From Nitrospirota bacterium (GTDB taxonomy: Bacteria > Nitrospirota > Thermodesulfovibrionia > Thermodesulfovibrionales > Dissulfurispiraceae), in NCBI GenBank assembly GCA_040758355.1, contig JBFLWF010000012.1, positions 15,870 to 79,869 on the forward strand: DNA of 64,000 nt, read 5' to 3'. This document shows positions 27,410-63,850 of the stretch, one piece after another (positions within the stretch are counted from its first letter, which is position 1; every line of letters starts with the position of its first letter). Under the pieces are notes generated by a model. That model worked only from the letters and a program-made list of their open reading frames with translations. It did not search any database and had not been told where the DNA came from. A program made the translations under genes and the position numbers.

Positions 27410-28474
27410 CTATTTCCCAAATGGACAAACAGGATACCTGCACTCCTTGCAATTAAGACATAGACCGCCATGTCCGAGTTCTGCAAGCTCTTTTCTTCCG
27501 ATCTTTTCTCCTGCGAGTATCCTCGGAAGGATTAAATCGAAAATGGTTATCTTATGATACATTCCACAGGCGGGAATGCCGAGAATGGGAATGGATGTAA
27601 GGTATGCTGCTAAAAACATCGCTCCAGGAAGAACTGCGGAGCCGTATGCAATATCGGCTGCGCCAAGCCTCCTTATGGCAAACCTTGTGACATCGTCCGG
27701 GTCAACAGACATGCCGCCTGTTGTTATAAGCAAATCAGCGCCTGCCTCGATTAATTCCTTCAGCCTTGCTTCGATAAATCCTTCGTCATCGGGTGCATAA
27801 TATATGCCGACAATGCCTCCATCAAACTGTTCTATCTTTTTCGTGATTACAGTGGCAAAGGCATCTTTTATCCTCCCATAATAGACCTCGTTGCCGGTAA
27901 TAACGACTCCGATCTTCGGTTTTCTCATTTCTTTAATCTCTATGATCTTACCTGCGGATTCAGTGATTCTCACTGCTTCTTCAACCACATTTCTCTTGAC
28001 CACCAGCGGTATAGCCCTTGTTCCGGCCACAACCTGACCTCTCTTTACCACGGTGTTGCCATGAAGGGTTGCACACATCACATCGCCTAACATATTGAAT
28101 TGAGTAAGGGCGTGTTTATTTACCTTCAGAAGCCCGTCTCTGTCAGCAATTATGTTTATCTTTCCTTCCTTTGGTTCGCCCTCCACTGTAACGCCTTCAC
28201 CCATGAGGGCATTGGCAAGGGCATATGCTGCATCGTCTTCATGAACTTCGTCTTCAGCGATATTTAAAACAAATAAATGCTCTTTCCCAATTTTTCGAAG
28301 ATGGTTTATGTCTTCCTCCTTGATGATATGGCCTTTTCTAAATGCCCTTCCCTTGAACTCGTCCCTGCGTATTTCTGTAATGTCATGTGCCAATACCATT
28401 CCTACAGCTTCTGCTACAGGTATTGTCCTGGCGCCTGACATGCTCCTTATTTCGTTATTCTGCACGTCGCACAT
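27410..28474 (-). CDS. Molybdopterin-binding MoeA-like protein
   Basis: AVGMVLAHDITEI, TGGMSVDPDD, LPGAMF, C-terminal CxxCxxCxxPxC. Confidence 0.85.
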   Translation of the reverse strand: MCDVQNNEIRSMSGARTIPVAEAVGMVLAHDITEIRRDEFKGRAFRKGHIIKEEDINHLRKIGKEHLFVLNIAEDEVHEDDAAYALANALMGEGVTVEGEPKEGKINIIADRDGLLKVNKHALTQFNMLGDVMCATLHGNTVVKRGQVVAGTRAIPLVVKRNVVEEAVRITESAGKIIEIKEMRKPKIGVVITGNEVYYGRIKDAFATVITKKIEQFDGGIVGIYYAPDDEGFIEARLKELIEAGADLLITTGGMSVDPDDVTRFAIRRLGAADIAYGSAVLPGAMFLAAYLTSIPILGIPACGMYHKITIFDLILPRILAGEKIGRKELAELGHGGLCLNCKECRYPVCPFGK

Positions 28475-28486
28475 AGAGCCTCCTTC

Positions 28487-28786
28487 CTATAACTCCTTCC
28501 CGGCATTCGCAGTAATTGTTATCTTCTGGAACCATAAAATCCCTTTCAAAGGTGACAGCATTCCTTTTAAAGTATTTTGTATTAATGTCTTTGCAAAGTC
28601 TTTTTTTATGTCTATCTCTCCATTTTCGGTATAAATACGAAGCTCATCGTATTCGATACAGATGGTTACATTCCTTGGGTTATAGCCCAGGGACCTCGCA
28701 ATTGCACACAGGACGTTTGCAATATAATTCTGTGTAAAGTCATTAAGGGGAACTACACGATTATTTACCAGAAGGCTCGTTTTCAA
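28487..28786 (-). CDS. Hypothetical protein (LxVN..VPLNxF repeat, MobB C-terminal-like)
   Basis: Operonic ORF with internal duplicated motif. Confidence 0.55.
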   Translation of the reverse strand: MKTSLLVNNRVVPLNDFTQNYIANVLCAIARSLGYNPRNVTICIEYDELRIYTENGEIDIKKDFAKTLIQNTLKGMLSPLKGILWFQKITITANAGKEL

Positions 28787-29390
28787 TTGTGTTTTGCGTT
28801 CTTGAAATTATTAAAGCTGTTATTCCCGCACCTGCAGAATAGAATTTACTACCTTGTTCGAAATTTTTAATCTCCTTTGCAAGTTCGTCTATCCAATTCA
28901 GATGACTGCCGAGAAATTCCATTTGTTCCTCAATGTCTCCATTAATGCATAAAAACGCCATATACTCCATCTCAAGTGCTATGTGGTCTGGCATGGATGA
29001 ATATTTATCCGGTATGACGATGTCGCGAGCCTGATAGCGCTTGATCATGTCCATCGCAGGGTCTCCCATCAGATAGCCTTTCTCTCCCGCCATAGGCAGC
29101 CTGCATTCGGGATCGCTCGACCATCTCTTATAAACGCTTTCAACAGGAACGATATAAGGCGGTAACGGGCCCTCAAATAGCCTTCTGTATTCATCTTTAA
29201 GAATATTATATACATCACCGCTTACTAAAAACCCCGAAAGGCAGGATGTATCAAGATCGAGTGCAGAGAATACTTCTTTGAAATAGTCGAGGAGTCTGCC
29301 TGACGCGACATCATCGGCAAACTCCTCTGTGGGTTCCTTGAAAAACTCACTTAATTGAGCGTATAGGTTTGCCAGGAATACTTTATTCAA
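28761..29390 (-). CDS. TorD/DmsD-family chaperone
   Basis: PVESVY, PDHIALEMEYMAFL, HLNW. Confidence 0.9.
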   Translation of the reverse strand: MNKVFLANLYAQLSEFFKEPTEEFADDVASGRLLDYFKEVFSALDLDTSCLSGFLVSGDVYNILKDEYRRLFEGPLPPYIVPVESVYKRWSSDPECRLPMAGEKGYLMGDPAMDMIKRYQARDIVIPDKYSSMPDHIALEMEYMAFLCINGDIEEQMEFLGSHLNWIDELAKEIKNFEQGSKFYSAGAGITALIISRTQNTIENEPSGK

Positions 29391-29925
29391 GCTTTAATCG
29401 CTCCAGATAAATGGTAGACGGCTTTGTTCCAAACTTATTTATATCACGAAACCACCGTCCATCTGACTTTGCTTTCGCAATGAGATCGTCGGACTTCCCG
29501 AAACTCAATGCATGTCCCGGGCACTTGGTAACACATGCAGGTTTTTCATCCCTCGCAAGCCTGTGTGCGCAATATGTGCATTTGTCAGCAACCATTTTAT
29601 CCTCATCAAACCCCATGGCTCCGTAAGGACACGCCCATGAACAATAACGGCACCCAATACATTTGCTTTTGTCTATAAGCACAACGCCGTCTCCTTCCCT
29701 TTTATAAATCGCTCCGGTAGGGCATGCCTGTTTGCAAGCAGGCTTTCCGCAATGCATGCACGGCATTGAAACAAAGTAGAGCTTATTGCCTCCTTGCGGA
29801 TTCACCCATATTAACTTGGTTCTGTATCTGCCTTCCCCTATGCCATTTTCAAGTTTGCACGCAGTCTCGCATGATTTGCATCCAATGCATCTTTCTAAAT
29901 CAACCATTATCGTATATCGACTCAT
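29383..29925 (-). CDS. 4Fe-4S dicluster subunit (DmsB/NrfC family)
   Basis: CIGCKSC..C, CMHCGKPAC..CP, CIGCRYC..CP, KCTYC..C..CP. Confidence 0.93.
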   Translation of the reverse strand: MSRYTIMVDLERCIGCKSCETACKLENGIGEGRYRTKLIWVNPQGGNKLYFVSMPCMHCGKPACKQACPTGAIYKREGDGVVLIDKSKCIGCRYCSWACPYGAMGFDEDKMVADKCTYCAHRLARDEKPACVTKCPGHALSFGKSDDLIAKAKSDGRWFRDINKFGTKPSTIYLERLKLE

Positions 29926-29940
29926 TTTCCGCCTCCTTTG

Positions 29941-32337
29941 CTATGCCTTTGTTACTTTGCATATCAGCGCTTTAAAATTTATCTGATCGGAAACAGGACA
30001 CCTCTTGTTCTTATCAACAATAAAGTTTAACGATTTCCACTGGGTAAACGGCTGTTTTTCGGAATATGTGTTCGGCACGAAAACAGTGTCTTTCCTGATA
30101 CCCTCATAAACCCATGCCTTTGCAAATACATACCCCTTCAGTCCCTCTACCTTTACCTTATCGCCGTTCTGAATTCCTATTTCTATCGCCTTTTCAGGAT
30201 GTATCATGCAGTACTGGTCGGGCGTCTGCTCGCAGAGATTCCAGAGCCAGTGGCTGCCGTCGCCAAAGTGTGCCGCGGATGGCCTGCCTGATGTAAGATA
30301 CATGTCAAAGCCCGACATCTCGGGCTTCTCGGGATATTTGATCTTTACCCGCCGCGCCCTCATGTTGCCTACAGCCACTATGCCTTTCATCAGAGAGGTA
30401 ATGCCCACCGACGAATCGTCATCAAGATATTCAAGATAAGGAAGACCGTCCTTCATCCCGATCTCAGGGTCAACATAAAATTCAGGCAGGGGACTCAATC
30501 CCTGAGCCTTATACATTTTTTCCAAATCCTCAGTCCATATCTCAATCTTTCCTGAGGGTCTCGGGAACTGGCCTTTCTTGCCGGGCACTCCGTGCTTCTC
30601 GGTATAAAGAGTGCCTATCTCTGGAGCGTCCGGAGTCGGAAGCGGTCCTCTCAACGCGCCATCCTTCTTAGCAAAAAATCTCTCGGGCGAAAAACCTGTC
30701 TTCTTAGCCATCGCCCTTTGTAAAACCACAGGGTCTTTGTATTCGTCCTTAAATATATCTCCCCACCCCATCTTCTTGCCGAGTTCGATAAATATCCATC
30801 TTTCGGGTTTTGCCTGATGCAGCGGCTGGATGACCTGAGGTACAAATACGTTTCTCCTCTCATCGGAAACAGGAGCAACCCCTCCTGATTCGGCCCATGG
30901 AGACACAGGAAGAATATAGTCGAAATAGAATGTCTCTATGCTCGGAAACATATTGTAGTACACGGAGACCTCAAGGTTATCCAGCGCCGTCATTACCCTT
31001 TCGATGTCTCCCCATTGTACGAGCGGATTGCAGCATGCCATGAATGCCTTTATGGGATAAGGCTTCCCTGTGATCATCGGCTCAACCCATGCGATAGGAG
31101 ACCTTCCGAGCCTCTGTTTTTTTGGTTTTACTTCCTTATCGGCAGGCACGGAAATGCTTCCCATTGGCGTTGCGCCTGTATTTCCGCAGCCGTATCCCAT
31201 TGAAGGCTTTCCGAAATGACCTGTTATGGCGGCAAGCATAAAGAACGCCCTGTGGGTCAGATGGCCGTTTGTGTGGTGGCTCAAGCCGGCGTTGCCCATG
31301 ATTATCGCCTTTTCAGTCTTTGCGTATTCCTCCGCAAGCTCTTTAATCGTCTTTGCAGAAATTCCCGTAATTTTCTCAGCCCATTCGGGTGTGTATTTTT
31401 TCTCGATAAGAAACGCCTTGAGTTTATCAAAGCCAAGCACCTTATTATTTATGAAGTCCTGATTTTGCAGGTTCTTCTCTATGATGTGATACATCATAGA
31501 AAGCGCCAACGCCATATCTGTCGAGGGCTTTATCGGGAGCCATACATCTGCCCTGCTTGCAGCCTCGGACATCCTCGGGTCGACCACAATAAATTTTGTC
31601 TTCCTTTTTATCCTTTCATCATTCGTTGCTCCGAACGCTACAGGTTTACATGCAGCCATATTACTGCCGACAAACATGTACCAGTCTGCGCCGCCGAAAT
31701 CTTCTCTCGTGTATGTCCACGGCGGGTTGTTATGTCCTAAAATGGAATTTGAAGCGGTCGTTCCCGCAAGATTACAAAAAGGGCCGGTTCCTTCGCGATG
31801 CGGAGTGCCGTAAAGTTTCTCGAACGTCCCTGTCAGCCCCGCTCTTGCCTGGGATTCGCTCCTACCTCCGGTCCACCACGCAAGCGCCTCGGGGCCGTAT
31901 TTCTCTTTAACCGCTTTAAGTTTATCTGCAATCTCAGTTAATGCCTGCTCCCAGCTTATCTCCTGATATGATTCCGGCTTGCCCCTCGGCCCTATGCGCT
32001 TTAAAGGAGCCTTCAGGCGGTATTTGTTATACAGCATGTTCACGCTGTTCTGTCCCTTCGGACAGAGCTTGCCGCCTGTTACAGGGTCGTCAGGATTGCC
32101 GTAAATATTAATAATCCTCCCTGCCTTTACATGCACCTTCATGCTGCATCCCGTCTGACACCATTGACAGCCTGCTGTCACCGCCCTGTCGGGCATAGGC
32201 GCTATACCGCTTTCGGCATATGGTTTATGGGTTTTAAAATTTTCCGTGCCTTTTACACTTAAAGGCATTCCCGCAACTGCCGCAGCGGCGCCTGCAACCT
32301 TTAGAAATGTCCTTCTTGAAAGCCTTAGCTTATCCAT
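29941..32337 (-). CDS. Tat-exported molybdopterin oxidoreductase catalytic subunit (DMSO reductase family; substrate unknown)
   Basis: SRRTFLK, CQWCQTGC..LCPKG, VDPR, IHPEKA; GGAGG RBS. Confidence 0.92.
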   Translation of the reverse strand: MDKLRLSRRTFLKVAGAAAAVAGMPLSVKGTENFKTHKPYAESGIAPMPDRAVTAGCQWCQTGCSMKVHVKAGRIINIYGNPDDPVTGGKLCPKGQNSVNMLYNKYRLKAPLKRIGPRGKPESYQEISWEQALTEIADKLKAVKEKYGPEALAWWTGGRSESQARAGLTGTFEKLYGTPHREGTGPFCNLAGTTASNSILGHNNPPWTYTREDFGGADWYMFVGSNMAACKPVAFGATNDERIKRKTKFIVVDPRMSEAASRADVWLPIKPSTDMALALSMMYHIIEKNLQNQDFINNKVLGFDKLKAFLIEKKYTPEWAEKITGISAKTIKELAEEYAKTEKAIIMGNAGLSHHTNGHLTHRAFFMLAAITGHFGKPSMGYGCGNTGATPMGSISVPADKEVKPKKQRLGRSPIAWVEPMITGKPYPIKAFMACCNPLVQWGDIERVMTALDNLEVSVYYNMFPSIETFYFDYILPVSPWAESGGVAPVSDERRNVFVPQVIQPLHQAKPERWIFIELGKKMGWGDIFKDEYKDPVVLQRAMAKKTGFSPERFFAKKDGALRGPLPTPDAPEIGTLYTEKHGVPGKKGQFPRPSGKIEIWTEDLEKMYKAQGLSPLPEFYVDPEIGMKDGLPYLEYLDDDSSVGITSLMKGIVAVGNMRARRVKIKYPEKPEMSGFDMYLTSGRPSAAHFGDGSHWLWNLCEQTPDQYCMIHPEKAIEIGIQNGDKVKVEGLKGYVFAKAWVYEGIRKDTVFVPNTYSEKQPFTQWKSLNFIVDKNKRCPVSDQINFKALICKVTKA

Positions 32338-32365
32338 ATCAAACCCTCCTTCTATCCGTATCAAA

Positions 32366-33141
32366 TTAATAAAGCCCGAACGACTTCGAGATAACAGATA
32401 GGTCTCCCGTGAGCTTTGCCTTCAGCGCATTAAGCTTGCCGAGTCTCTTCGTAAACATCTCCTTTACCTTTTCCCTGTGCCGTTTGTCGATGCTCTCTGT
32501 TATAAGCTCCCTTCTCTTTTCGGCCCTTTCCATGCTATTTATTTCAAGTAAACAACTCTCTATTTTTTTAAGCTCCTCCGACTCCAATGCAACACAGTAT
32601 TTAAAATTTTCAAAATAGGATGCCGTAACCTTCAATTCATGCCTGTCAATGTCCTTGAGCCTGCGAATATTTGCTTTCCTGTCTTTATTCACCACAACGC
32701 CCCTGTCAATGCACTCATAACCACAGTTGCGGTACATACTCAGACTGCCGTTCTCCATAATGAGCGACTCAGGGAAGAGACGGCAGTGAATAGGCCTGAT
32801 ATCATAAACCGAACACTTGCCGTCTTTGAGAAATCTGCATGGGAATATCAGCCCTACAGAAGGGATAAGGAGGCACGTGCCCGGTATCCTGTTCCATATC
32901 ACCTCGCAGTAGTCCTTAAAAAAATCCCCACCCCTCATCGAGAGATGCTTGCACAGCCTGATAATATCTCCCAGTGTCAGTTCAAGGGGATTGCCCTTGT
33001 CAGTGCAGCACCGAACACATCCGTCAATACATCGAAAGCCTCTGTTGTCCGGGGACAGTCCCGAATCAGAGCCTGCTCCGTTTAATACGGGGGCTTCGCC
33101 CGTAATTCTGGGACAGTCCCCTTTTCTGTCTTTAACACCCA
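32366..33141 (-). CDS. YkgJ/CxxCxxCC family protein (start uncertain)
   Basis: CIDGCVRCC, CRFL..KCSVY..RP..CRLFP. Confidence 0.8.
33052..33120. repeat. Two GGGACAGTCCC REP-like palindromes
   Basis: Copies at 33052-33062 and 33110-33120; also at 39134-39170. Confidence 0.6.
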
Positions 33142-34067
33142 CAGGCCTCTTCCACAGAGATGTTGAGCTGTGATGTTGCCTTCTGTCCGTTTTCATCTTC
33201 AACAGTTAAGACAACCGCATAAACGCCCTGTGTAAATGTATGCTGGGCCTCTTTACCTGTAGCGCTTTCCCCATCTCCGAAGTCCCATCTTATGGATTTG
33301 ATCCTGCCGCTTCCGCCTCCAATAATGGCCTTGAATTTAACTGTATAGGGTGCATCGCCTCTCCTGTTTTTTACGCCGCCGATCTTTACCTTAAGCGGTC
33401 CTCCAGAAGCCAGTTCTTCTTCAACAAGCAGACTGCCGCCAAGACGCTTTGAAGCCTTCATCAATGAGTCCCTTGTTTTGTCCTGCATCTGCGCTGGAGC
33501 AGCAATGCTTCCGCCTATCTTCTGGACTGCCTGCTGTCCGTCATCCACCCTCAACTTGTTTACTCCCATATCCACAACTACCCTTCCCAAAATGGACCAG
33601 ATGGTGAACTCTTTCTTTGCGTCATCATATTTCAGTGCAAATTCAGCGCCCTGAGTCATAATGGGAACATTGCCTGCACTGATCTCAAAGTGAGTAAACA
33701 GGTGTTCGGGAACCTGAGCCTTTGCAAATATGCGGCCCTTTTCCAGTGTAAGGAGCGTCTTTTCCATGTTCCTGTCGCTCTCAAAGATAACTCCCTTCAG
33801 GATAATGGATGTTTCAGGATAAATTTCTACAATGCCGCCGTTTGACCATGTAAGGACAACGGCAGAATTAGCGCCTGTGGCAATCTTTTCATCCCTCTGA
33901 ACAATGTCGCCCTCTTTCAACGGAATACCGTTTTTTGTTACCGTACCATCTACCCTTGTAGCCCTCACTACAGATGCATCCTCGGCATAGGCGCTAACAA
34001 CGCCGACAAGCAAGATGCAATAAAACAAAACACTTAACACCAACACATTTCTGAAAAGTCTGAACAC
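33132..34067 (-). CDS. Exported FecR-like + PKD domain protein ending in CGC
   Basis: Signal peptide; FecR-like N-domain; WDFGDG..HTF..G.Y.V.LTV PKD signature. Confidence 0.8.
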   Translation of the reverse strand: MFRLFRNVLVLSVLFYCILLVGVVSAYAEDASVVRATRVDGTVTKNGIPLKEGDIVQRDEKIATGANSAVVLTWSNGGIVEIYPETSIILKGVIFESDRNMEKTLLTLEKGRIFAKAQVPEHLFTHFEISAGNVPIMTQGAEFALKYDDAKKEFTIWSILGRVVVDMGVNKLRVDDGQQAVQKIGGSIAAPAQMQDKTRDSLMKASKRLGGSLLVEEELASGGPLKVKIGGVKNRRGDAPYTVKFKAIIGGGSGRIKSIRWDFGDGESATGKEAQHTFTQGVYAVVLTVEDENGQKATSQLNISVEEACGC

Positions 34068-34094: not shown

Positions 34095-34496
34095 CTAATT
34101 TCTTGTTCCTTTAGCTTCTATTTTTTTGGGTCCCTGTGCCACAGAGCAGAAGGATTTGCGTCAACCGGCCTCGACATCGATGGTTGTGCTCGCAGTGTAT
34201 ATCCTGCCGTCTCCATCCCAGACCTCCAGCACCACATTACATTTCCCGTATTCGTAATAATGCGGTGGAGGGGTCTTTTCAGAACTCTCTTCTCCGTCTC
34301 CAAAGTACCAGTGAAACTTCAAAGGTTCTTTCAGTTTTCTTATCTTTGGTTCGAGCAGCCACATGGTGCCGCTCTCCGATGTCGGGACAGCAATAATCTC
34401 TACCCTGCCAGCCTTCTGTTCTTCAGCAAAGACATTCCCCGAGATCACAATGACCGCACTGCATACGACAAAAATATGGAAGAGGATTTTAACCAT
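34095..34496 (-). CDS. Exported PKD protein, candidate selenoprotein (VEAG-U-RKSFC...); ends at 34161 if UGA is stop
   Basis: Signal peptide; WYFGDG PKD motif; frame stays open past UGA to TAG at 34095. Confidence 0.7.
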
Positions 34497-34499: not shown

Positions 34500-36272
34500 C
34501 TAAAATTCAAACTCGGCTCCAAGAACAACCTTTGAGGCAGGGTCGGCCTTTTGTCCATTCGCCTGCTGGTAAACTGCCGAAGGAACAAAATACCCAGCTT
34601 CTGTAAAACCCCTCAGACGTTTATAGATCGGGAAATTGAGATCGAGATCTATGCCCCATCCAATATCCCTTGTCTTTTCGGTTGTGAGAGAAGCCCCGCT
34701 GCTCCAGTCTATTCCGGGCACGGGACCCCTTCCTTTATAAACGATCTCTGTTGTCCAGTATCTTGCGAGGGCAATATTCGTTTGAAGGCTCTTAACAGGC
34801 TCGAACCCTGCAATTGCCCTGATAAATGTAACATTCGCGAGGTTGCTATCCCATAGATAATACCCAGCCCTCAAATCCTCGCTGAATATGTTTCCGAATT
34901 TCCTTCTGTCCTTGCATAGAAATAACCCTCTGAAATTTTTATAATCGCCGTTAACAGGATCGTCAACCTTGTTTCCCGATCCCCTCCCGAACTCCAGACC
35001 TGCCGAAAACTTCTTTAAAAAGCCCACATTGCCGAAATGATAATCGCCCCTCAGCAGAAAGGCATAGGCAGATAAATCCCTTGTATTGGTATACTGACCT
35101 GTAAGATAGATTAAGTCAGCCATGTATGAGATTCTTTCTCCTTTCCCTGACAGTGCGATGCCGAGCCAGAGAGGTTCAAAACTTCCGTCGCGCGGCGTAG
35201 TGTTTAAATTAAAATCCTTATCGAGGTTTAAATCAGGGTCGCCAAACTTACCCCTGTCAAATACCTTGAGGACATATGGCTCTATGTTCAAATCCCTCCT
35301 GGGCTTTATATTAAAGCTGATGAGAAAGCCATCCAGCTTGTTTGCAATGCCGAGGGCAGCGCTCCTGTCTCCGGCAGGCCCTGCTCCGAAGTTGTTGTAA
35401 TTCCTGAATCCTCCTGCAACAGCTATATATGTCAAATTCCCTGTGATCCTTCCCATAGGTGTCTGGCCAAAGGGATAAGAGATCTTGAATGCATCCACAG
35501 GACCTTCGAGCACTACACCATCATTTCCTGCCATGACATTTTGCCTGCCTGCCTTCGCAATAAAATCGCCCGTATACTGGACGTAGAGCTCCCTCACTAA
35601 TGCTGAGTTTACCGTAAGAAACTCTGACCATCTGTCGAGGGTGCCTTCGCTGTCTTCCTTCCAGTCAAACACAAAGTTCCCTTTGTCAAAAAGCACTACC
35701 CCTGTTATTGGGCCGTAGTCCGCCTCGATTTTCAACTGAAACCTCTGATCAAAATAGGTAGTGTTGTCGTATGTCCATGCCTGTCTCGGATTGTTGAGAT
35801 TGATATTATCCTTTACATTCAGCCGCAGTTTGTATTTCCCTGAAAATGCAAATTTCGTCTTCTCTTTTGCCTCCTCTTCTTCTTTTGCCGTCCTGGCATC
35901 TAATTTTCTTTTCCACGTCTCAAGTTCTGTAAGTCTTCTTCTTGCTTCTTCATCCCTCGCTTTCTGGATATCCGTTTCAACCACCGGCTCGCCCCATTCA
36001 TCTGCTGCTTCCTTTTTATCCTTTGCTTCGGCAACTGCAGGCTTTGAAGGAATAGCTGCCGGAGCAGGCTTTTTTTCCTGCAGGAGCCTATTCACCAGTG
36101 ACTCGAGGTCAGAGACGCGCTTCTCCAGTTTTTGAATATAGCCCTTTGTCTCATCATCAAGAGGGGAGGCTGCGTATGCCGATAAAGATGATGCTATCAG
36201 AGAAAAGACCATAAAGGTTGTTATTAAAATGTATCTGACAAAAATTATCGTTTTTTTCTTTTCAATGCTCAT
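34500..36272 (-). CDS. Outer-membrane beta-barrel with N-terminal coiled coil
   Basis: Signal peptide, coiled coil, amphipathic strands, C-terminal AEFEF. Confidence 0.75.
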   Translation of the reverse strand: MSIEKKKTIIFVRYILITTFMVFSLIASSLSAYAASPLDDETKGYIQKLEKRVSDLESLVNRLLQEKKPAPAAIPSKPAVAEAKDKKEAADEWGEPVVETDIQKARDEEARRRLTELETWKRKLDARTAKEEEEAKEKTKFAFSGKYKLRLNVKDNINLNNPRQAWTYDNTTYFDQRFQLKIEADYGPITGVVLFDKGNFVFDWKEDSEGTLDRWSEFLTVNSALVRELYVQYTGDFIAKAGRQNVMAGNDGVVLEGPVDAFKISYPFGQTPMGRITGNLTYIAVAGGFRNYNNFGAGPAGDRSAALGIANKLDGFLISFNIKPRRDLNIEPYVLKVFDRGKFGDPDLNLDKDFNLNTTPRDGSFEPLWLGIALSGKGERISYMADLIYLTGQYTNTRDLSAYAFLLRGDYHFGNVGFLKKFSAGLEFGRGSGNKVDDPVNGDYKNFRGLFLCKDRRKFGNIFSEDLRAGYYLWDSNLANVTFIRAIAGFEPVKSLQTNIALARYWTTEIVYKGRGPVPGIDWSSGASLTTEKTRDIGWGIDLDLNFPIYKRLRGFTEAGYFVPSAVYQQANGQKADPASKVVLGAEFEF

Positions 36273-37910: not shown

Positions 37911-37912
37911 CT

Positions 37913-39100: not shown

Positions 39101-39133
39101 GCTTGCACCTCTCAAAATTAGTTTTCGGTTATC

Positions 39134-39170
39134 GGGGACAGTCCCTGTCTTAATAACAGGGACTGTCCCC
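39134..39170. repeat. REP-like doublet hairpin
   Basis: GGGGACAGTCCCTGT-N7-ACAGGGACTGTCCCC. Confidence 0.7.
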
Positions 39171-39188
39171 TTTGCCTTAAAACCCTTA

Positions 39189-44082: not shown

Positions 44083-44097
44083 TTACCAACCTCCCTA

Positions 44098-45030: not shown

Positions 45031-45043
45031 GGCTGTTTAACCT

Positions 45044-45550: not shown

Positions 45551-45586
45551 CACGGACTCCGTTTTAAAAGATTTTTTAGAATGAAT

Positions 45587-50639: not shown

Positions 50640-50706
50640 TGCCCTTGCCTCTGAAAATCTTCGATCCTTGAGGCTTTCTTTTATCAATTTTTGTGCCACT
50701 AAATTT

Positions 50707-54713: not shown

Positions 54714-54751
54714 TTTGCCCCTCCTTTTGTCTCCACAGCGGGAAACAATTT

Positions 54752-56187: not shown

Positions 56188-56204
56188 ATTCTGATTCCTC
56201 CTAT

Positions 56205-56618
56205 TTAACATCCCATCCTCCTGAATGCCTTTATCCTCTTAATTATATTTTCAAGATTAACGTTTAATTTCTCTGATATCTTGTCGCACTCCATCCCTGA
56301 CTTTCTCATATTTATTATTTCATCATTGGTTTTTTCGACAACTCTCATACAGGCTACTATTGCAAGCGCTTCACCCGGCGTAAACTCTTTAACCAGCCTT
56401 TTAATTGTATCTGGTGGAACAGCATGTCCATAGTTGTCTATGAGTTTTTCTTCAAAATCCCTGAGCTGGTCTGGAGTAGATCTTTTTTCTGTCACGTCCT
56501 TCATTAATTTGTTCAACTCATCCATCTCGCTGTTAGCGATAGCAATTACCGGAAGAAAAAACATTAGTAACATCCCTATTGCCAACGCTTTTACTAAATT
56601 TTGTCTGCTTAACCTCAT
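56205..56618 (-). CDS. Exported helical protein ending ...FRRMGC
   Basis: Signal peptide; paralog of 58067-58474. Confidence 0.75.
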   Translation of the reverse strand: MRLSRQNLVKALAIGMLLMFFLPVIAIANSEMDELNKLMKDVTEKRSTPDQLRDFEEKLIDNYGHAVPPDTIKRLVKEFTPGEALAIVACMRVVEKTNDEIINMRKSGMECDKISEKLNVNLENIIKRIKAFRRMGC

Positions 56619-58024
56619 CTTAACCCTCCTTCGCTGTTTTCTGCATGAAGTCCTTTTAAAAAGACTTCATCCGTAGATTTTGTAATATATTCCTTTTTGG
56701 ATACCTTTGCTATGCCGGATCCCTTCTTTATTGTCCAGACGAAGAGAAAAATCAACAGAGCAGTGTAAGCAAGAGCAAAGCCGTATTGCGCGTACTCGTT
56801 GTCAGGAAGAAGTTCAAGCATATTTTTTGCCTCCATGAAGCCGCGGGAAAAGAAGACATCGTCTATCTGGTCTTTAAAAAGCGAATACGGGAGGTAGCCG
56901 AGCATAAAGCCGGGCAGGGCGGTAAGACCTGTCATATATGCCATGCCGAGCCTTGAATATGTCCTAATCTCGCAGCCGAGCATCATAACACTGCCGATTC
57001 CCAGCATGGGACCGCCTACGAGATGTCCGAGATGAAAACCGTATTTGTATTTTCCGGCCTCTACAACTACCGGCACGTCCCATCCGAGGACAATCCATGT
57101 AAAAACTATTGTCAGGTTAAACATAAGTATTGCAACGAGAAGCCCGGCAAAGGGCATCAGTCCTGTAAACATTGTCTGGGTTATCTTTGCTACCTTCATA
57201 GCCTCAAAATGTTTTGGCTTAAAAAGGAGGGACTTTGGTGACATTACAGCACATTCCGTCCCAAATCCTGATTTGGCTATGCCGATGCCGACGAGTAGGC
57301 CGACCAATGTTTTAAGTCCGAGTTCAAACAGCGAAATGCTGCCGATACTGTTAGCCGAATTGCCCTTCAGTGCTGTCCATCCCGCGGAAACAAGGAGCAG
57401 GAGGAAAAAGGCCGTGAATATCAGGCGGACCGGGTCTCTATACGGCTTGTAATCAGGATCATAACTCAATGTTTCGGTCTGATACTCCAGTTCAACGCAT
57501 TTCTGCACCGTTGACTTGACCTCGTGGTGTTTCATGAAACCGCCGGCATTTAATCTTGCCATAAGCAAAAATGCAAGATATGCAAACGGGATGCTCACGA
57601 TAGCCACAACAATGGATGTCAGGCTCATGGCAGGAATGCCTCCGAGGTAATGCCATGCCGTGCACCCCTGTGCAAGTCTGGTTCCGAAACCGAAGATAAC
57701 AGCGCCTATAAAAGAAAGCACCAACACGCGAGGCGGGTATTTGACCCATGTCTTTCGCTCGCGTTCAAGCAGCGTTACAAGGCATCCTCCAAATATAATA
57801 CCGATCAGTATCCAGTGAATATCCGCGCTGTATGTCCGTGTAATAAAATCGGTCCCGCTTATGTTTTCCTCAAGCGTGCCGAACATCTTTGCAAGTCCTG
57901 TTGTTATGGGTATCGGTGTTTCATATTTCAGGAAATACAATACTTCTGCAAGTCCAACAAGAAATCCTCCCCACACAAACGACCATGGTTTTGTAAAAAT
58001 ATATCTCAATTTGTAGCCTCCCAA
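56615..58024 (-). CDS. YeeE/YedE-family sulfur/selenium transporter (two-domain)
   Basis: GFGTRLAQGC, GFGTEC, GIGSVMMLGC; polytopic. Confidence 0.8.
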   Translation of the reverse strand: MGGYKLRYIFTKPWSFVWGGFLVGLAEVLYFLKYETPIPITTGLAKMFGTLEENISGTDFITRTYSADIHWILIGIIFGGCLVTLLERERKTWVKYPPRVLVLSFIGAVIFGFGTRLAQGCTAWHYLGGIPAMSLTSIVVAIVSIPFAYLAFLLMARLNAGGFMKHHEVKSTVQKCVELEYQTETLSYDPDYKPYRDPVRLIFTAFFLLLLVSAGWTALKGNSANSIGSISLFELGLKTLVGLLVGIGIAKSGFGTECAVMSPKSLLFKPKHFEAMKVAKITQTMFTGLMPFAGLLVAILMFNLTIVFTWIVLGWDVPVVVEAGKYKYGFHLGHLVGGPMLGIGSVMMLGCEIRTYSRLGMAYMTGLTALPGFMLGYLPYSLFKDQIDDVFFSRGFMEAKNMLELLPDNEYAQYGFALAYTALLIFLFVWTIKKGSGIAKVSKKEYITKSTDEVFLKGLHAENSEGGLR

Positions 58025-58066
58025 ATTCCCTTGAACTTTTTATTCAGGGACACGCCCTGATTTTAA

Positions 58067-58474
58067 TTACTCTCAGCCTATTCCACTGCGGAAGCTAATC
58101 ACATCCTTGATTACATCTTTAAGCTTTATACCCAACTGACTTGCTATATCCTCCCATCTCTTGCCTGATTTCCTCATGTTGGCAATATCCCTGTAAGGCT
58201 TTTTCGATAGATTGGACATGATGATTATCGTAACCGTGTCTCCTGGCGGAAATTCTTTAATCAGGGTCTCGATCACATCCGGTTTCTGAACCCCCGAAAA
58301 ATAGTCCTTAGCCTTTTTCTCAAATGTCTTGAGGTTCTTTGACTGGTTTTTATTAATCATATTTATCAGCTTTTCCAGTCTCTCGGTCTCTGACAACCTA
58401 CCGGCAAAGGAAGTCAAAGGAAATAAAAAGGTGAATATGAGTAATAAAACCAAAACCTTCCTGACTCTTTCCAT
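58067..58474 (-). CDS. Exported helical protein, candidate selenoprotein ending ...FRSGIG-U-E
   Basis: GGC TGA GAG TAA; paralog has GC at this position; downstream hairpin. Confidence 0.7.
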
Positions 58475-58475: not shown

Positions 58476-60785
58476 TTATTTTAAACCTCCTTTAAACAGC
58501 CAGCCTCTCATCAACATAACCAGGGCCGGCAGATAGATTATTGTCATTATTGCACTGAGCATCATCATGCTCACTATGAATGCGCCCACAGTAATATACG
58601 GTGTCAGCGGCGCAAGCATCATCACAGCAAAGGATGCTGCAAAGAGCACAGCATTTCTCATTATTCCCTTGCCCGGTCTTGCAGCGGTCCATAATAAAGA
58701 ATCAGTTATGAGTTCGGAATTTGGAGTTTGTTCTGTCAATCTCTGCCTGAACCTGTTTACGAAATGAATGGCAAAATCTACTGCCATGCCGAGAGAAAGA
58801 CACGAAAGCACCGATATGGGCATATCGAATCTCTTTCCTGTAAATCCAATGACCCCATATATGAGCAGGACGGTAAAAATCAAAGGCACATAACTGACTG
58901 TAGCCCATTTAAAGGAACGGAAATTAAACACGAGTATCACAAATACAGCAATGAGGGCAAGGATAAAGCCTCTGACCATATCCCATAGCACCTCATTATT
59001 CCAGACAAGATTGAAATATGCAATCCCGGCTGGTTTCAGATCAAGGGGAATTGGATGCGCCTTTTTGTATTCATCTACAGCCTTTATCACATCTTGCATT
59101 GCCCCGGCATCCCATGTCTTAAGCTGCACCCATATATTCGCCTTTTTAAACGAAGGGTCAACCACATTGTCCAGATCAGAAGGTTTTGCCGACATGCTGA
59201 ATAAAAAGAGATATTGACCTATCGCCTCCTTTGAATCAGGCACTTTATCGCACTTCGGGTCGTCATCATGAAGCACACGGTTTATTCTCTTGACATAGTC
59301 TGCTACAGAAAATGTCTTTCCAACTACCGGCAGCTTCTCGATATGCCTCTGTAGCCCTTCAATGTATTTCATTGTCTCGGGGTTTTTGATAAAATCGTCC
59401 TCTTTCGATATTGCTACTACATAGCCAAGGGATGTGCCTCCGAGCGCCCTGTTTATCTCCCTGTCAGCAACTCGAATTTCGCTGTTCTTCTTGAACCACT
59501 CCACCATGTTGTTATTGACTACTATCCTTGTTATCCCGATGACCGCCAGCACAAAAAGTATGAGACCGACAAGGACTGTGGCCTTTGGTTTATGTACACC
59601 ATAACCGGCAAGATTTCTCAGGAATTGAGATGTCCTGCTCAATGTAATGTCTTCGTCTCTGGATGCCCTTTCTATCTTTTCCTCTTTTACGAAGGTAAAC
59701 ATTGCAGGAATGAAGCTGAAGCTCAAAACCCTGAGCATTACGGTGCCGAATGCAATCAGACCGCCGAAGACCTTCACTGGAATGATGTTCATAAATAAAA
59801 GAACTGCAAAAGCTGCTGCTGTTGCCAGTGCAGTGTATCGCACAGGACGGCCTACTGCATGCATGGTCTCAATGATTGCAGCCTTTTTATCTTTCTTCTC
59901 TTTGAAGCGGAAATAAAACTCATTAAAGATATGAATACTGTCTGTTGCAATGGCCATCAAGAATACAGGAGCCATTGAGCTCATAATGTGGATGGGAAAT
60001 CCGAGGGCTATTAATAACCCCATGCTCCAGACAATGCTTACCATGGCATCCATCATCAGCGTAATGGAAAGGAAAAGATCCCTGAACATAAGGTATCTGA
60101 CAAGGAGCATGACGCCGCCTGCAATCGGAGCGAATATTGCCATCAATTTAAACATCTCTGCGCCGAAGGTATCCCTTGCTACAGGGTCTCCTGCCACATA
60201 GTATTTCTCGTTGCCCTTTTCCTTCTTAATTATTTCTCTGATTTTATCGGCTACCTGTTTACCGTTTGCACCCTTTTCGAGAGGTATATAGATGGCAGTT
60301 GTCTTTCCATCCTTTGAGATAATGCGATTAATGAAAAGAGGATTTTCAAAGAGGTTTTTTTGCAGGGTCTTTATCTCACCTTCTGTTTTTGGGACTTCGG
60401 TCATGAGAGGGGCCACCCTTAAAGTTCCAGCTTCTGCTGTCACATTTGTAATGGTGGGAAAGCTGTTCACATCCCTCGATGCAACGCCCCTGATCTTCAG
60501 TATCTCATCGGTTATCCTCCGTATCTTTCCGAGGGTGTCCTTATTGAGAACACCTTTTTCATTTACCACTCCTAAAACTATCATATCCTCGTACAGTCCG
60601 AAGGTGCTGTCAACCTCATCATTCCAAACCCTCACATCCGATGTTGCAGGAAGCATGTTTTTGGGATTGGTGTCGGTCTTCATTTTTGGAAACTGGGTCA
60701 TAAAGACGATGGACAGGATAATCGTCAAAGCAACTACCAATTTTGGATGTTCAACAGAAAATTCAACAAGCGAAAACTTCCGCAT
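58476..60785 (-). CDS. MMPL/RND-family exporter
   Basis: Two TM blocks with AIATDSIH and GMAVDFAIH. Confidence 0.92.
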   Translation of the reverse strand: MRKFSLVEFSVEHPKLVVALTIILSIVFMTQFPKMKTDTNPKNMLPATSDVRVWNDEVDSTFGLYEDMIVLGVVNEKGVLNKDTLGKIRRITDEILKIRGVASRDVNSFPTITNVTAEAGTLRVAPLMTEVPKTEGEIKTLQKNLFENPLFINRIISKDGKTTAIYIPLEKGANGKQVADKIREIIKKEKGNEKYYVAGDPVARDTFGAEMFKLMAIFAPIAGGVMLLVRYLMFRDLFLSITLMMDAMVSIVWSMGLLIALGFPIHIMSSMAPVFLMAIATDSIHIFNEFYFRFKEKKDKKAAIIETMHAVGRPVRYTALATAAAFAVLLFMNIIPVKVFGGLIAFGTVMLRVLSFSFIPAMFTFVKEEKIERASRDEDITLSRTSQFLRNLAGYGVHKPKATVLVGLILFVLAVIGITRIVVNNNMVEWFKKNSEIRVADREINRALGGTSLGYVVAISKEDDFIKNPETMKYIEGLQRHIEKLPVVGKTFSVADYVKRINRVLHDDDPKCDKVPDSKEAIGQYLFLFSMSAKPSDLDNVVDPSFKKANIWVQLKTWDAGAMQDVIKAVDEYKKAHPIPLDLKPAGIAYFNLVWNNEVLWDMVRGFILALIAVFVILVFNFRSFKWATVSYVPLIFTVLLIYGVIGFTGKRFDMPISVLSCLSLGMAVDFAIHFVNRFRQRLTEQTPNSELITDSLLWTAARPGKGIMRNAVLFAASFAVMMLAPLTPYITVGAFIVSMMMLSAIMTIIYLPALVMLMRGWLFKGGLK

Positions 60786-60800
60786 GAAACCCTCCTTGAG

Positions 60801-60827
60801 CATAAGGGGGACGGAGTCCCCCTTATG
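60801..60827. repeat. 12-bp perfect inverted repeat (REP-like)
   Basis: CATAAGGGGGAC-GGA-GTCCCCCTTATG. Confidence 0.55.
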
Positions 60828-60886
60828 AAATCCCCCTTAAAATAAGGGCATAATATCTTGATAACACGCTTCTTAACATTGCATTC

Positions 60887-62074
60887 CTACGGCAAATTGC
60901 TCATTCCGTATTTCATCTTATAGAGAAAGTATCTTTCAAAGGCTGCTTTAAGCCATTTATAGTGAATGCCGCCTTTAAGCACCGATTCCTGTCTCGGCGG
61001 AAGAACAGGTCTTGCCTTCATGTATGCAGCAGCATTGCCCATATCCATAAGGCACACAACCGACAGTTCCTCCGGTGTCGGCGGTGTCTCATTTTTGATT
61101 TCTGCTGTGATTGTGGCTGCTGCGGTCTTTGCCATTGTTACAGTCATATAACCTGTCTTTGGCACTCCTGTCGGCACAGGAGTCGGCTCAGCAGGAGCAA
61201 TTGCCATTGCAACTCCGATGGCAAAGATATTTGGATATTTCGTATGTCTGTAGTTCCTATCAACAGGTATGAAACCGCGCGGATTGCCGAGTGGCGCAAC
61301 AGCAGGCACGCCCTTAAACGGAGGCGCTATCATGGCGAGCCTAAATGGAATTTTTGTCCCGTCTTTGAGCCTTACCTCTGTGGGGACAACCTCCTCAATA
61401 GCCTGATTTGTTATAAACTTTATCTCCCTTTTTGAAAACTCATCCTCGATGAATCTCTTTGAATTGCCGAGTCCTCCGATGCCGAAGTGGCCTGCATAAG
61501 GCTCGGATGTCAGGTACAATATAGGCACCTTATGCCTTATCCTTCTCTTTCTCAATTCTGCATCCATCTCAAAGACAAGCTCGTATGAAGGGCCGAAACA
61601 GCTTACTCCCTGAGCAGAGCCTATGATTATGGGGCCCGGTTCTTCAAGGAGTTTCTTCCATGAAAGATTGGTCTTTACAGCATGATCAAGAGTGAATGTG
61701 CAGTCGGTGTATCCTTTATCAGGGCCAAGGCCGGGTATTTCATCAAAAGAAAGATGCGGGCCGGTTGATATTATGAGATAGCCGTATGGAATCTCTCTTG
61801 TGGCAGTAAATACCTTTGATGCATCAGGGATGATCTCTTTTGCAGCCTCATGAATAAAACCTATCCCTTTAGATTTAAGGATCTCTCCAGCATTGAGCTT
61901 GATATCATCTGGTTTCCTCCACCCCATAATCAGCCAGGGCAGGGAAGGCAGAAAGACAAACCTTTCATCATCGCTGACAACGGTTATCTCTGCTTCTTTT
62001 CCAAGAAGTCTTTTCAATTCAAAGGCAGCAGTAAGTCCGCCGAAAGAACCCCCGAGTATTACTATTTTCGCCAC
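60887..62074 (-). CDS. sqr: Sulfide:quinone oxidoreductase (type III-like)
   Basis: GGSFGG, SCFGPSYE, GVPKTGYM, VCLMDMG. Confidence 0.85.
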   Translation of the reverse strand: MAKIVILGGSFGGLTAAFELKRLLGKEAEITVVSDDERFVFLPSLPWLIMGWRKPDDIKLNAGEILKSKGIGFIHEAAKEIIPDASKVFTATREIPYGYLIISTGPHLSFDEIPGLGPDKGYTDCTFTLDHAVKTNLSWKKLLEEPGPIIIGSAQGVSCFGPSYELVFEMDAELRKRRIRHKVPILYLTSEPYAGHFGIGGLGNSKRFIEDEFSKREIKFITNQAIEEVVPTEVRLKDGTKIPFRLAMIAPPFKGVPAVAPLGNPRGFIPVDRNYRHTKYPNIFAIGVAMAIAPAEPTPVPTGVPKTGYMTVTMAKTAAATITAEIKNETPPTPEELSVVCLMDMGNAAAYMKARPVLPPRQESVLKGGIHYKWLKAAFERYFLYKMKYGMSNLP

Positions 62075-62165: not shown

Positions 62166-62168
62166 TCA

Positions 62169-62450
62169 TTAAAACATTCCCACTACCTTATCCTCTTTTA
62201 CCATAAAATCCACAAGGGCATCGTAACCTATTTCCTTTATCCCTTTGTCCATATCCCCGGAACTCAATCCCCTTAAGCGCGCATCCTCACCAAGCACAAA
62301 TGCCGTACCGCAGAAGCCTTCGAGCCTCTCCTTCTGAGCAAAATACACGGCGTTTTGCATCAGGCAAATGTCTGCAGCCATGTCCCTCGCCAGTTTTACA
62401 CCCCTGCTACCTTCCGGAGTATCCGGTGCACTTTTTATAATCACAAGCAT
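62169..62450 (-). CDS. DsrH/TusB-like protein
   Basis: LMQNAVY, EDARLRG, IGYDALVD. Confidence 0.8.
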   Translation of the reverse strand: MLVIIKSAPDTPEGSRGVKLARDMAADICLMQNAVYFAQKERLEGFCGTAFVLGEDARLRGLSSGDMDKGIKEIGYDALVDFMVKEDKVVGMF

Positions 62451-62460
62451 AAATACCTCC

Positions 62461-62814
62461 CTAAAAAATCATGGTTGTATCCGTTCCTTTAATAAGCTCT
62501 GCAATCTCAGAGCCATTTGCAATAATCACCCCTTCCACCAGGTTGTCAGTTTCGAGTTGCTCATCCTTTATGGATGTTTTGTCAGCATAGACATCAACAC
62601 CCATGTCGATGCAATCTTTTATTCCAGCCTCTATGCTTGAATATTCGGTATTGGATATGTCCTGCCCCTTTCGTGCTGCATTCACACCTCCGTCCACGAG
62701 TATCAACTTCACACTCATGTCCTCGATTATTCCTCCGAGGGCATGACGGATTGCTTCTGGCGCATCAACAGTACCGTACGGTGGTCTTCTTAAAATTATG
62801 CTTATGCTTCCCAT
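62461..62814 (-). CDS. DsrF/TusC-like protein
   Basis: RRPPYGT..EAIR, DGGV. Confidence 0.8.
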   Translation of the reverse strand: MGSISIILRRPPYGTVDAPEAIRHALGGIIEDMSVKLILVDGGVNAARKGQDISNTEYSSIEAGIKDCIDMGVDVYADKTSIKDEQLETDNLVEGVIIANGSEIAELIKGTDTTMIF

Positions 62815-62823
62815 ATACTCCCC

Positions 62824-63168
62824 CTATACACCGAAATTTAAAAAAATGGGATTTGCCTTGATTACATTAAAGAGCCCTTTCAAAGAGCTCATCTCCCCGC
62901 CTTCGACAGAATCCTCTTCCGCAAGACCGCGGAGCTGCATACAGCCTGTTCATATATCAACCTTGAGCCCCCTGCCCACGAGGTCTTCCAGTGCGGACAA
63001 TGCCCGCGGAACCTGCCCTTTGACAATTGAGAAAACACCGTCTCCAGACGCAACAAGCCTCACCTTTTGTCCCTTTTTAAGGGCAGCATCTGCGAGCTTG
63101 AATATGGTGTGGGTGTTTTCAAAACTGTACGGCGTTGTTGAAAGAAACATCACTATCTCCCTTTCCAT
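62824..63168 (-). CDS. DsrE/TusD-like selenoprotein candidate (KVDI-U-TGC-MQLRG)
   Basis: Read-through of UGA 62950-62952 restores a 114-aa DsrE ending 10 nt before the next ATG; GGTC-loop hairpin. Confidence 0.9.
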
Positions 63169-63188
63169 TTTACCTCCCCCTTAACGAA

Positions 63189-63509
63189 TTAAAATGTTAA
63201 TACCCTGTCGCTCTCCTTCAGCATGGCGTGCATGTCCTTAAGTCCGGCAACGGGACAGATGTCTGTAGGCCCCGCATTCCTTAATTTCAGACATGTCCCG
63301 CAAGCGAATATCTTTCCTCCTGCTGCAAGGAAATCCTTCATCTGCTGTGTAACCGGAAATTTCTCGGTATCAAGGGACTCTGCTTCCACACCCTTGCCTG
63401 TTAGAAAAACCTTTACCTCGTCACCTTCCTTCATGGCGAAATTGCCATATCTAAAGGCATTCCATACGGTCTCAGGATCGTTCGAATAGATAATAATTCC
63501 AATCTTCAT
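63189..63509 (-). CDS. DsrE/YchN-family protein (Cys form, CGTC)
   Basis: VFLTGKGVE, FACGTCLKLR. Confidence 0.85.
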   Translation of the reverse strand: MKIGIIIYSNDPETVWNAFRYGNFAMKEGDEVKVFLTGKGVEAESLDTEKFPVTQQMKDFLAAGGKIFACGTCLKLRNAGPTDICPVAGLKDMHAMLKESDRVLTF

Positions 63510-63850
63510 CAATGCCTCCTTTTACCTGGATATTTACCTTTTTTTGTTACAGGACAACATGCAGGAGCAGGCAGCTCCTTCCTGTAGTCCTTTTTCAAAA
63601 GCTCGATGATGTCCGGGATTATAGGGTCTTTGAGGAAATAGCACCTGAGCCTTCCATCCATATAATGGTCAATAACACCATGTGTTCTTAAAATGGACAG
63701 ATGCTGTGAGACATTGGGCTGGCTAATCTCAAGAAATTCTTCAAAATCGCTTACACACTTAACCCCCTTTGTCAGCTCATCGAGTATCCTTATTCTTACA
63801 GGATGGGCAATGATTTTTAAAAGCTCTATCCTCTTTCCTATCGAACGCAT
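63509..63850 (-). CDS. ArsR/SmtB-family regulator
   Basis: AHPVRIRIL, CVSD, SQPNVSQHL; C-terminal ACCP. Confidence 0.9.
   Translation of the reverse strand: MRSIGKRIELLKIIAHPVRIRILDELTKGVKCVSDFEEFLEISQPNVSQHLSILRTHGVIDHYMDGRLRCYFLKDPIIPDIIELLKKDYRKELPAPACCPVTKKGKYPGKRRH

Follow-up and report, generated by a model that had tools for sequence, protein, structure and literature searches.

Whether four genes that appear to end at UGA within one co-oriented cluster encode selenoproteins, and whether that cluster works as a single system, is the question raised by a 64,000-nucleotide stretch of DNA from a Nitrospirota bacterium (contig JBFLWF010000012.1 of assembly GCA_040758355.1, positions 15,870 to 79,869; hereafter the window). 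Every gene between positions 27410 and 63850 of the window lies on the minus strand, which applies to all window features given below unless marked otherwise. An earlier note on this DNA had proposed that the four open reading frames (ORFs) carry selenocysteine (Sec, U) at their UGA codons, that each has a cysteine (Cys) paralogue in the window and a hairpin just downstream, and that the region encodes one undescribed system for the respiration of sulfur or selenium oxyanions. Our results supported the Sec reading and modified the functional one. The region is best read as a conserved Thermodesulfovibrionales gene island for inorganic sulfur handling with four true selenoprotein genes, and we consider it highly probable that each of the four UGAs is a Sec codon.

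The positions and strand of the four in-frame TGA codons agreed with the note: they lie at 34161-34163 (a PKD-domain protein), 39552-39554 (an iron-sulfur, Fe-S, subunit), 58073-58075 (a small helical protein) and 62950-62952 (a DsrE-like protein). All four parts of the Sec-decoding machinery were present in the source genome, the assembly of which comprises 2.77 Mb in 93 contigs and is 99% complete. They were a SelA match of 538 bits, a 632-amino-acid (aa) ORF with a SelB winged-helix domain, a tRNA-Sec (69 bits, anticodon TCA) and a selD gene (G000:C13:51565-52479, minus strand), and because selD carries one in-frame TGA, the Sec machinery itself depends on Sec. The four ORFs were extended by reading TGA as U, and orthologues were collected by tblastn and profile searches of the genomes of relatives. 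The alternation of U and Cys that the note had expected was seen, with TGA kept in orthologues and Cys in other homologues. The conservation of the TGAs in other genomes argues that they are not due to chance or sequencing error. The features of a gene that depends on SelB and a selenocysteine insertion sequence (SECIS) were all found, namely a conserved in-frame UGA, an aligned Cys, a hairpin with G in its loop and the Sec machinery. SelB would read each UGA as Sec, helped by the hairpin just 3' of the codon.

Hairpins were counted when the stem had at least 6 base pairs, 3 or more of them G-C, and when the loop contained a G and started 14-35 nucleotides (nt) from the UGA. Such a hairpin was found in 4/4 candidate genes, and a comparable one in 5.5% of 470 long TGA-ending ORFs of the same genome, which served as the control. 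The loop distance of 18-29 nt given in the note held roughly for the PKD, helical and DsrE genes; the Fe-S gene has two hairpins with loops at ~12 and ~29 nt. Compensatory, two-sided changes were seen in the hairpin alignments of the helical, PKD and DsrE genes. The Rfam search of the window returned two tRNAs only and no SECIS family.

The small secreted all-helical protein (58067..58474; Sec codon 58073-58075) has the tail G-I-G-U-E-stop, and its GIGU-E aligns with the RMGC-stop tail of the Cys paralogue that the note had named (56205..56618). In a search of 201 genomes of the order, TGA was present in 8/8 matches at 59-99% identity and in 0/6 weaker matches. Scanning 185,579 species, each represented by one genome, with the family alignment gave 19 loci, all from Nitrospirota metagenome-assembled genomes; 9/19 were the same contigs as in the order search, and the Sec-type total including the window was 16. 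These counts exclude the distant matches L024 and L027, which have Gly/Lys-rich tails; L025, the last of 14 loci, gave no tblastn match to the helical query. The tail read G-I-G-U, then Glu or Asp, then a stop in 16/16 Sec-type genes, and the real stop was TAA in 12 and TGA in 3 of the 15 Sec-type loci, the window's own being TAA. The three with TGA (L126, L134 and L136) have two TGAs three bases apart. Five Cys-type relatives ended in GC, AC or GCA, with an invariant Cys in the U column.

The SECIS-like hairpin of the helical gene (TCAGGGCGTGTCCCTGA; 58044..58060) sits entirely within the 3' untranslated region, past the stop codon that is actually used. Its core GGG-CGUG-CCC was found 12-16 nt past the UGA in 16/16 genes, and an alignment of the 16 sequences predicted 6 pairs, 3 of which had changes on both sides. 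No U-tract follows the hairpin, so it is not a terminator. Only 8 proteins of this family were found among 5.8 billion, 132-134 aa long and hypothetical where named, and 7/7 of the database homologues retrieved ended ...GIG, as expected from the note's remark that gene callers truncate Sec members. The protein had no Pfam match and no NCBIfam family at E <= 0.001. The AlphaFold model (predicted local distance difference test, pLDDT, 85.5) showed a signal peptide, a seven-helix bundle and a free C-terminal tail, and Foldseek found no match for it in the PDB at E <= 0.001. Two other structural leads were discarded: the VIA-align wide search with the model reached a best Z of 5.3, which is the noise level for helical proteins, and the PDB profile search returned designed helical repeats only. 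The helical gene always stood beside a yeeE-family gene.

The second predicted selenoprotein is a secreted PKD-domain protein (34095..34496; Sec codon 34161-34163; Pfam PKD_4, 29 bits), in which the motif A-G-U-RKSF-C is followed by a 21-residue hydrophilic tail. TGA was kept in 7/7 orthologues of 44-99% identity, and in all seven the frame stayed open for 12-27 codons past the UGA with a Cys at +5 (G-U-x4-C); the motifs were AGURKSFC, PGUGGYGC, PGUGGVGC, GGUGTSSC, PGUGGFFC and GGUGTSTC (twice). In G321, which is not a member of the order, the orthologue carries Gly in place of Sec, retains the Cys and has an uninterrupted frame through this stretch, which shows that the tail is coding. The hairpin (GCTCTGTGGCACAGGGAC; 34130..34147) begins 13-16 nt past the UGA, and 8 pairs were predicted from 7 sequences, 2 of them with two-sided changes. 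No NCBIfam family matched the PKD selenoprotein.

Next to it lies a protein with FecR and PKD domains (33132..34067; Pfam FecR, PKD_4) and the tail EEACGC-stop, the last Cys of which aligns with the U of VEAGU; it is the Cys paralogue proposed in the note. The orthologues of this FecR-PKD protein ended in C-x-C and an ordinary stop in 9/9 cases (TGA in 5, TAG in 3 and TAA in 1), and the window's own stop is TAA. This varying stop served as a control and contrasts with the invariant TGA of the Sec genes. A single TGA flagged in the FecR-PKD match of G064 proved to be an ordinary stop only.

The third candidate is a four-cluster Fe-S subunit of the PsrB/DmsB type with no signal peptide (39189..39815; Sec codon 39552-39554). 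Four Cys groups and a Fer4_11 domain (104 bits) were found in it; it is not a DmsB equivalog, since its score of 184 lies below the cut-off of 214. The motif is C-x2-U-x4-C-x3-C-P (C-M-H-U), and U88 occupies the second Cys position of the second cluster motif; in the alignment to the solved PsrB chain 2vpw_B (E 3.6e-37) it falls on a cluster Cys. PCMHU also aligns with PCMHC of the protein at 29383-29925. The alignment claimed in the note was thus correct; the Cys protein is the beta subunit of a second enzyme.

TGA was found in 5/9 Fe-S orthologues of at least 70% identity, these being the five closest (88-100% identical, three families), and TGC in the other 4/9, which are 70-80% identical. 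All 25 other Fe-S homologues examined (25/25) had TGC or TGT, that is, Cys. With Sec in the five closest orthologues and Cys in the rest, Sec appears to be a recent replacement of a [4Fe-4S] ligand. A weak match in G165 (36% identity) was listed with 1 TGA and 1 TAA. Downstream of the TGA the ORF is 88-97% identical among orthologues. Two adjacent hairpins lie just 3' of the UGA, the second with a GGUC loop (39512..39548), and among codons for identical residues nucleotide variation was seen at 3/15 after the U and at 113/155 in the rest of the gene. These frozen synonymous sites are strong evidence for RNA constraint. The Fe-S TGA was also covered by contigs of three other metagenome runs, with no change at 39552-39554 among the differences listed, outside of which lie 337 lesser differences.

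Sec in the Fe-S gene and Sec in the PKD gene occurred together in the same five genomes, and both were lacking in G321, suggesting that the two residues were gained and lost together. In G321 the two orthologues lie on contig C7 (L144) at 13584-13994 and about 8798-9409, the Fe-S orthologue with Cys and the PKD orthologue with Gly. Strain variants of window positions 34000-39900 were also seen in contigs of several groundwater/subsurface metagenome runs besides the probable source run, and the source organism is a groundwater-type Nitrospirota bacterium.

The fourth candidate is a DsrE-like protein with the motif U-T-G-C (62824..63168; Sec codon 62950-62952), in which the UxxC motif accompanies a Pfam DsrE domain above its cut-off (49.5 against 22.7 bits). 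TGA was found in about 100 matches (101 counted) of 38-99% identity across the order. BLASTP placed U73 opposite the first Cys of the CGTC motif of the protein at 63189-63512, in agreement with the note. The SECIS hairpin lies at 62918..62933 (TCCGCGGTCTTGCGGA), and for the DsrE hairpin alignment of 30 sequences (CCGCGGUCUUGCGG) 6 pairs were predicted, 2 with two-sided changes (in 9 and 3 sequences). The protein matched no NCBIfam family (release 20). In a comparison meant to place U relative to the active Cys78 of DsrE, the solved chain 2hy5_A gave only a weak match (E 0.63), with query residues 8-88 on chain residues 6-93.

An alternative is that some or all of these TGAs stop translation in the ordinary way, mark pseudogene lesions or come from faulty assembly, the hairpins being terminators or chance structures. 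Several points weigh against Sec. The reading of the four genes comes from sequence, and no RNA run was among the sequencing runs listed. Read-through adds two residues only to the helical protein, and therefore the truncated product is nearly full length. The PKD orthologue without Sec in G321 has Gly rather than Cys at the aligned site, so the residue is not indispensable. On the other hand, TGA was invariant in 16/16, 7/7 and 5/5 independent assemblies, while the FecR-PKD stop varied. The helical TGA is always followed by a Glu/Asp codon and a second stop, its Cys-type homologues end at the aligned Cys, the Fe-S ORF stays conserved past its TGA, and no U-tract stands behind the hairpins. 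We therefore regard ordinary stops, lesions or errors as very improbable, and the Sec reading is kept for all four genes.

The note had called the system undescribed. As selenoproteins, the PKD, helical and Fe-S proteins appear to be so, but the DsrE-like protein is not: DsrE-like (UxxC, PF02635) is a long-known selenoprotein family and is included in the available part of the table of a 2026 review. That part also includes a Sec form of YeeE/YedE and an SQR selenoprotein subtype; it has 0 occurrences of PKD and no DmsB/PsrB/TtrB-type subunit. In the deep-Sep paper, PKD, 4Fe-4S, iron-sulfur and ferredoxin had 0 occurrences. The three families are thus apparently undescribed, though Haft and Tolstoy 2025 or Deng et al. 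2026 may name some of them. Sec in Fe-S motifs and near C-termini has precedents in the available part of the review table, so that no new category is at hand. According to the accessible part of their descriptions, UXX-star (NF041211, GxGU) and KCU-star (NF033934) are, like the helical protein, small proteins whose Sec stands in a GxGU motif only one to three residues before the C-terminal end, which is so near that the SECIS must follow the stop codon. The helical protein differs from them in having no NCBIfam match, a tail of U plus one residue, a signal peptide and a yeeE neighbour.

If these readings hold, three families (PKD, helical and PsrB/DmsB-type Fe-S) would be added to the ~111 known selenoprotein families; the genes of all three are at present wrongly annotated as truncated or hypothetical. 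Fe-S orthologues that are 76-80% identical would differ naturally in having Sec or Cys at one [4Fe-4S] ligand, a setting in which to study how selenium tunes a cluster, and the helical gene would be an instance of a bacterial SECIS that works entirely past the stop codon.

The other genes fall mainly into two halves, half A (27410-45553) and half B (53056-63850). In half A, the catalytic subunit beside the Sec Fe-S gene is a molybdopterin protein of 998 aa (39829..42825) that is TtrA/PsrA-like and exported by twin-arginine translocation (Tat); its best solved relative is 2vpw_A, and it scored 346 against the TtrA cut-off of 1750 and 202 against the PhsA cut-off of 694. The second enzyme (27410..33202) comprises a PhsA/PsrA-like subunit of 807 aa, the Cys Fe-S beta subunit and a TorD-like chaperone. 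Within the same interval are a CxxCxxCC protein, a 99-aa protein and a MoeA-like protein, and cofactor-synthesis genes are present. The 807-aa subunit scored 288 against the PhsA cut-off of 694, with the Thermus polysulfide reductase as best solved relative. Since both molybdopterin subunits lie far below the TtrA and PhsA cut-offs and are closest, among solved structures, to this reductase, the oxyanion respiration suggested in the note was not supported. An oxyanion is not favoured over polysulfide or S0 as substrate; selenium is a possible candidate, though a less likely one.

The quinone module of half A (42862..45553) consists of an NrfD/DsrP-like membrane protein, a Tat-exported Fe-S protein (DsrO-like) and a four-CxxCH cytochrome c. 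The NrfD-family protein (42862-44082) reached 432 bits with the DsrP model (NF045798; cut-off 350), and its neighbours are molybdoenzyme genes, not dsrMK; the DsrO-like protein, at 192 bits, stayed under the cut-off of 200. Half A further holds an outer-membrane barrel (609 aa), a two-CxxCH protein (316 aa), a TorD-like chaperone and a polyferredoxin (439 aa), all at 34500..39232, assigned by Pfam and syntenic in relatives. Between the halves are a histidine kinase, a membrane protein, a methyl-accepting chemotaxis protein and a response regulator (45691-49133), followed by a sigma-54 response regulator, a Cache/HAMP histidine kinase and a PhnD-like binding protein (49257..53066), which link the halves in relatives.

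Half B begins with an outer-membrane barrel (412 aa), a CBS protein, an S-adenosylmethionine (SAM) methyltransferase and a LolA-like protein (53056..56211; Pfam and synteny). The yeeE-family neighbour of the helical gene encodes a YeeE/YedE-family membrane protein of 469 aa (56615..58024; Sulf_transp 74 bits, cut-off 27), in which C121, C258 and C351 are invariant in a 12-orthologue alignment; it stayed below the equivalog cut-offs for TsuA (40 against 400) and YedE/FdhT (31 against 350). Between the helical gene and yeeE, 16/19 species loci have a gene for a periplasmic rhodanese that bears a signal peptide and a CxTGQ loop (for example L125:6459-6959, plus strand), a count that includes a weak, partial match in L140 and a partial alignment in L123. 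No rhodanese lies between the two genes in the window and its genus, and the gap in the window is 46 nt. The complex prediction for YeeE with the Cys helical paralogue scored 0.00 and gave no answer. The remaining genes of half B encode an HAE3/MMPL-type transporter of the resistance-nodulation-division (RND) superfamily and an SQR-like flavoprotein (58476..62074), DsrH-like and DsrF-like proteins (62169..62814; Pfam DsrH, DsrE), and the Cys DsrE-like protein (CGTC) with an ArsR-family regulator (63189..63850). Elsewhere in the genome are dsrAB (contig C1), two DsrC homologues and seven TusA homologues. The note had given the DsrE/SQR/YeeE half a respiratory role; it looks like a sulfur relay instead. 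Signals and membrane domains bore out the proposed span of outer membrane, periplasm and cytoplasm, and added the inner membrane.

Synteny was examined by tblastn of 38 window proteins against contigs of relatives. The complete gene order of the region was retained in G116, and in G144, G168, G069 and G321 the halves were joined via the same genes for the 412-aa barrel, PhnD, kinase and NtrC. These five genomes represent three families of the order and one outside it, and the recurrence of the gene order in several Thermodesulfovibrionales families makes a linked system plausible. The opposite reading is that the Sec genes are real but that the region is two or three unrelated adjacent operons (molybdoenzyme, two-component/chemotaxis and DsrE-YeeE relay) in a Sec-rich organism. 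It is favoured by half B occurring without half A nearby in G054 (of the same genus), G038 and G013, by the roughly 100 DsrE-Sec matches across the order with or without the molybdoenzyme cluster, and by other Sec genes elsewhere (selD, TlpA-like, YedE-like). The five genomes in which the same barrel and PhnD-kinase-NtrC genes join the halves speak against it, as do the Fe-S and PKD Sec residues that occur together in five genomes and are both lacking in G321.

Further points count against one linked sulfur system. In the window the halves are separated by the chemotaxis/kinase block, which is absent from that place in G116, G144 and G168. The relatives all belong to one order, so that shared ancestry could account for part of the conserved synteny. 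Neither catalytic subunit attained the cut-off of a curated model. There is no TusA gene in the window, and the DsrF-like and DsrH-like proteins missed the TusC (29.9 against 94) and TusB (38.4 against 49) cut-offs, so they are DsrEFH-like and not TusBCD equivalogs. We read the association of the two halves as real but separable. Of the single pathway claimed in the note, the adjacency in several families stands, and half B alone in at least three relatives does not fit it. Likewise, paired Cys and Sec versions exist in the window but are not a conserved design, as Cys helical and Cys DsrE copies are missing from most relatives. On balance we judge unrelated neighbouring operons to be unlikely, though a serious alternative, and consider a linked sulfur-handling system as described here moderately probable.

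A third possibility is that the cluster handles selenium, by selenate or selenite reduction, selenium import or detoxification, with its carriers bearing selenium. Selenate reductases are found among TtrA-like enzymes. YedE/YedF-type proteins are tied to selenium metabolism according to the available part of the 2026 review, YeeE and the Cys DsrE protein weakly match the YedE/FdhT and YedF models, and an ArsR regulator and a SAM methyltransferase are in the cluster. The scores, however, are 31 against 350 bits for YedE/FdhT and 19 against 110 for YedF, and Sec in a protein is uninformative on its substrate. The rhodanese, the SQR-like and DsrEFH-like proteins and the DsrP/DsrO-like module, together with dsrAB and dsrC, indicate sulfur. 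A selenium-handling system is therefore quite improbable, and sulfur remains the preferred element.

For a linked sulfur system, half A would provide two Tat-exported Psr/Phs/Ttr-like molybdo- or tungstopterin enzymes, partnered by the cytochrome c/Fe-S/NrfD quinone module, the outer-membrane channel and two secreted PKD proteins with C-terminal Cys/Sec arms. Sec in place of one [4Fe-4S] Cys ligand of the larger enzyme's beta subunit would shift the properties of that cluster in the electron wire. Among solved structures, PsrABC of Thermus thermophilus (2vpw) best matches both catalytic subunits as well as the Fe-S subunit, and shares with the window the Tat signals on catalytic subunits, the four-cluster beta subunit and the NrfD-type membrane partner; the window differs in its Sec ligand, the DsrOP-like and cytochrome c module, and the extra outer-membrane channel and PKD proteins.

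Half B would form a sulfane-sulfur relay, in which the periplasmic helical carrier would bind sulfur on its C-terminal Sec/Cys and, with the rhodanese in most relatives, feed the YeeE-family channel. The cytoplasmic DsrE(Sec)-DsrF-DsrH-like complex would pass the sulfur on, probably to DsrC/DsrAB encoded elsewhere, and the SQR-like flavoprotein and the RND/LolA-like/barrel transporter would accompany the relay. The step to DsrC is proposed because it mirrors the YeeE-TusA-DsrEFH type II ('YTD') cluster, which transfers sulfur to DsrC according to the available part of a 2026 paper (PMC13293266). The window likewise has DsrE, DsrF-like and DsrH-like genes and a yeeE-family gene in one block, but it has no tusA in the cluster and an extra Cys DsrE-like gene, and the word 'selenocysteine' has 0 occurrences in the available part of that paper. 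With the importers YeeE/TsuA-TsuB and SoxT the window protein shares the Sulf_transp family and three conserved Cys; its partners, in contrast, are periplasmic (the helical protein, and the rhodanese in relatives) and not cytoplasmic and TusA-like. The sequence data show the Sec codons, the hairpins, the domain families, the cell locations implied by signals and membrane domains, and the synteny; that the arms act as carriers, which way the sulfur moves, how the halves are connected and what is consumed (polysulfide, S0, thiosulfate or tetrathionate) is what we infer.

SoxY is a periplasmic carrier with a reactive Cys on a flexible C-terminal GGCGG arm and an Ig-like sandwich like that of PKD domains. 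It serves here as a working analogy for the PKD and helical proteins: no SoxY was among the Pfam matches, the helical fold differs, and Sec stands in for Cys. A bolder proposal is that the helical and PKD proteins are Sec-armed carriers of a new kind that would take up sulfane sulfur as an Se-S adduct at the outer-membrane channel and serve the molybdoenzymes and YeeE, with the Sec-ligated cluster tuning the wire. We hold this to be speculative and rather doubtful. If true, sulfur would traverse the whole envelope on protein-bound selenium, following a SoxY-like logic built from unrelated folds. The fixed place of the helical gene by yeeE and the rhodanese offers a testable idea for the delivery of sulfane sulfur to YeeE-type channels, which bears on current models of how anaerobes with Dsr oxidize or disproportionate sulfur.

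Two further likely Sec genes were noticed elsewhere in the source genome (G000), on the plus strand of contig C4 around base 91,370 and on the minus strand of contig C22. One encodes a YeeE/YedE-like protein whose GGUTVGH lines up with GGC in a paralogue, the other a TlpA-like thioredoxin-fold protein whose WASWUDTC lines up with WASWCPPC. A whole-genome screen for U/Cys paralogue pairs left 34 rows after filtering, of which three were judged credible (the Fe-S, TlpA-like and YedE-like genes); before the filter the screen was swamped by off-frame matches, and its yield should not be taken as the size of the selenoproteome. The opposite (plus) strand holds two tRNA genes at window positions 27150-27310, immediately upstream of the cluster.

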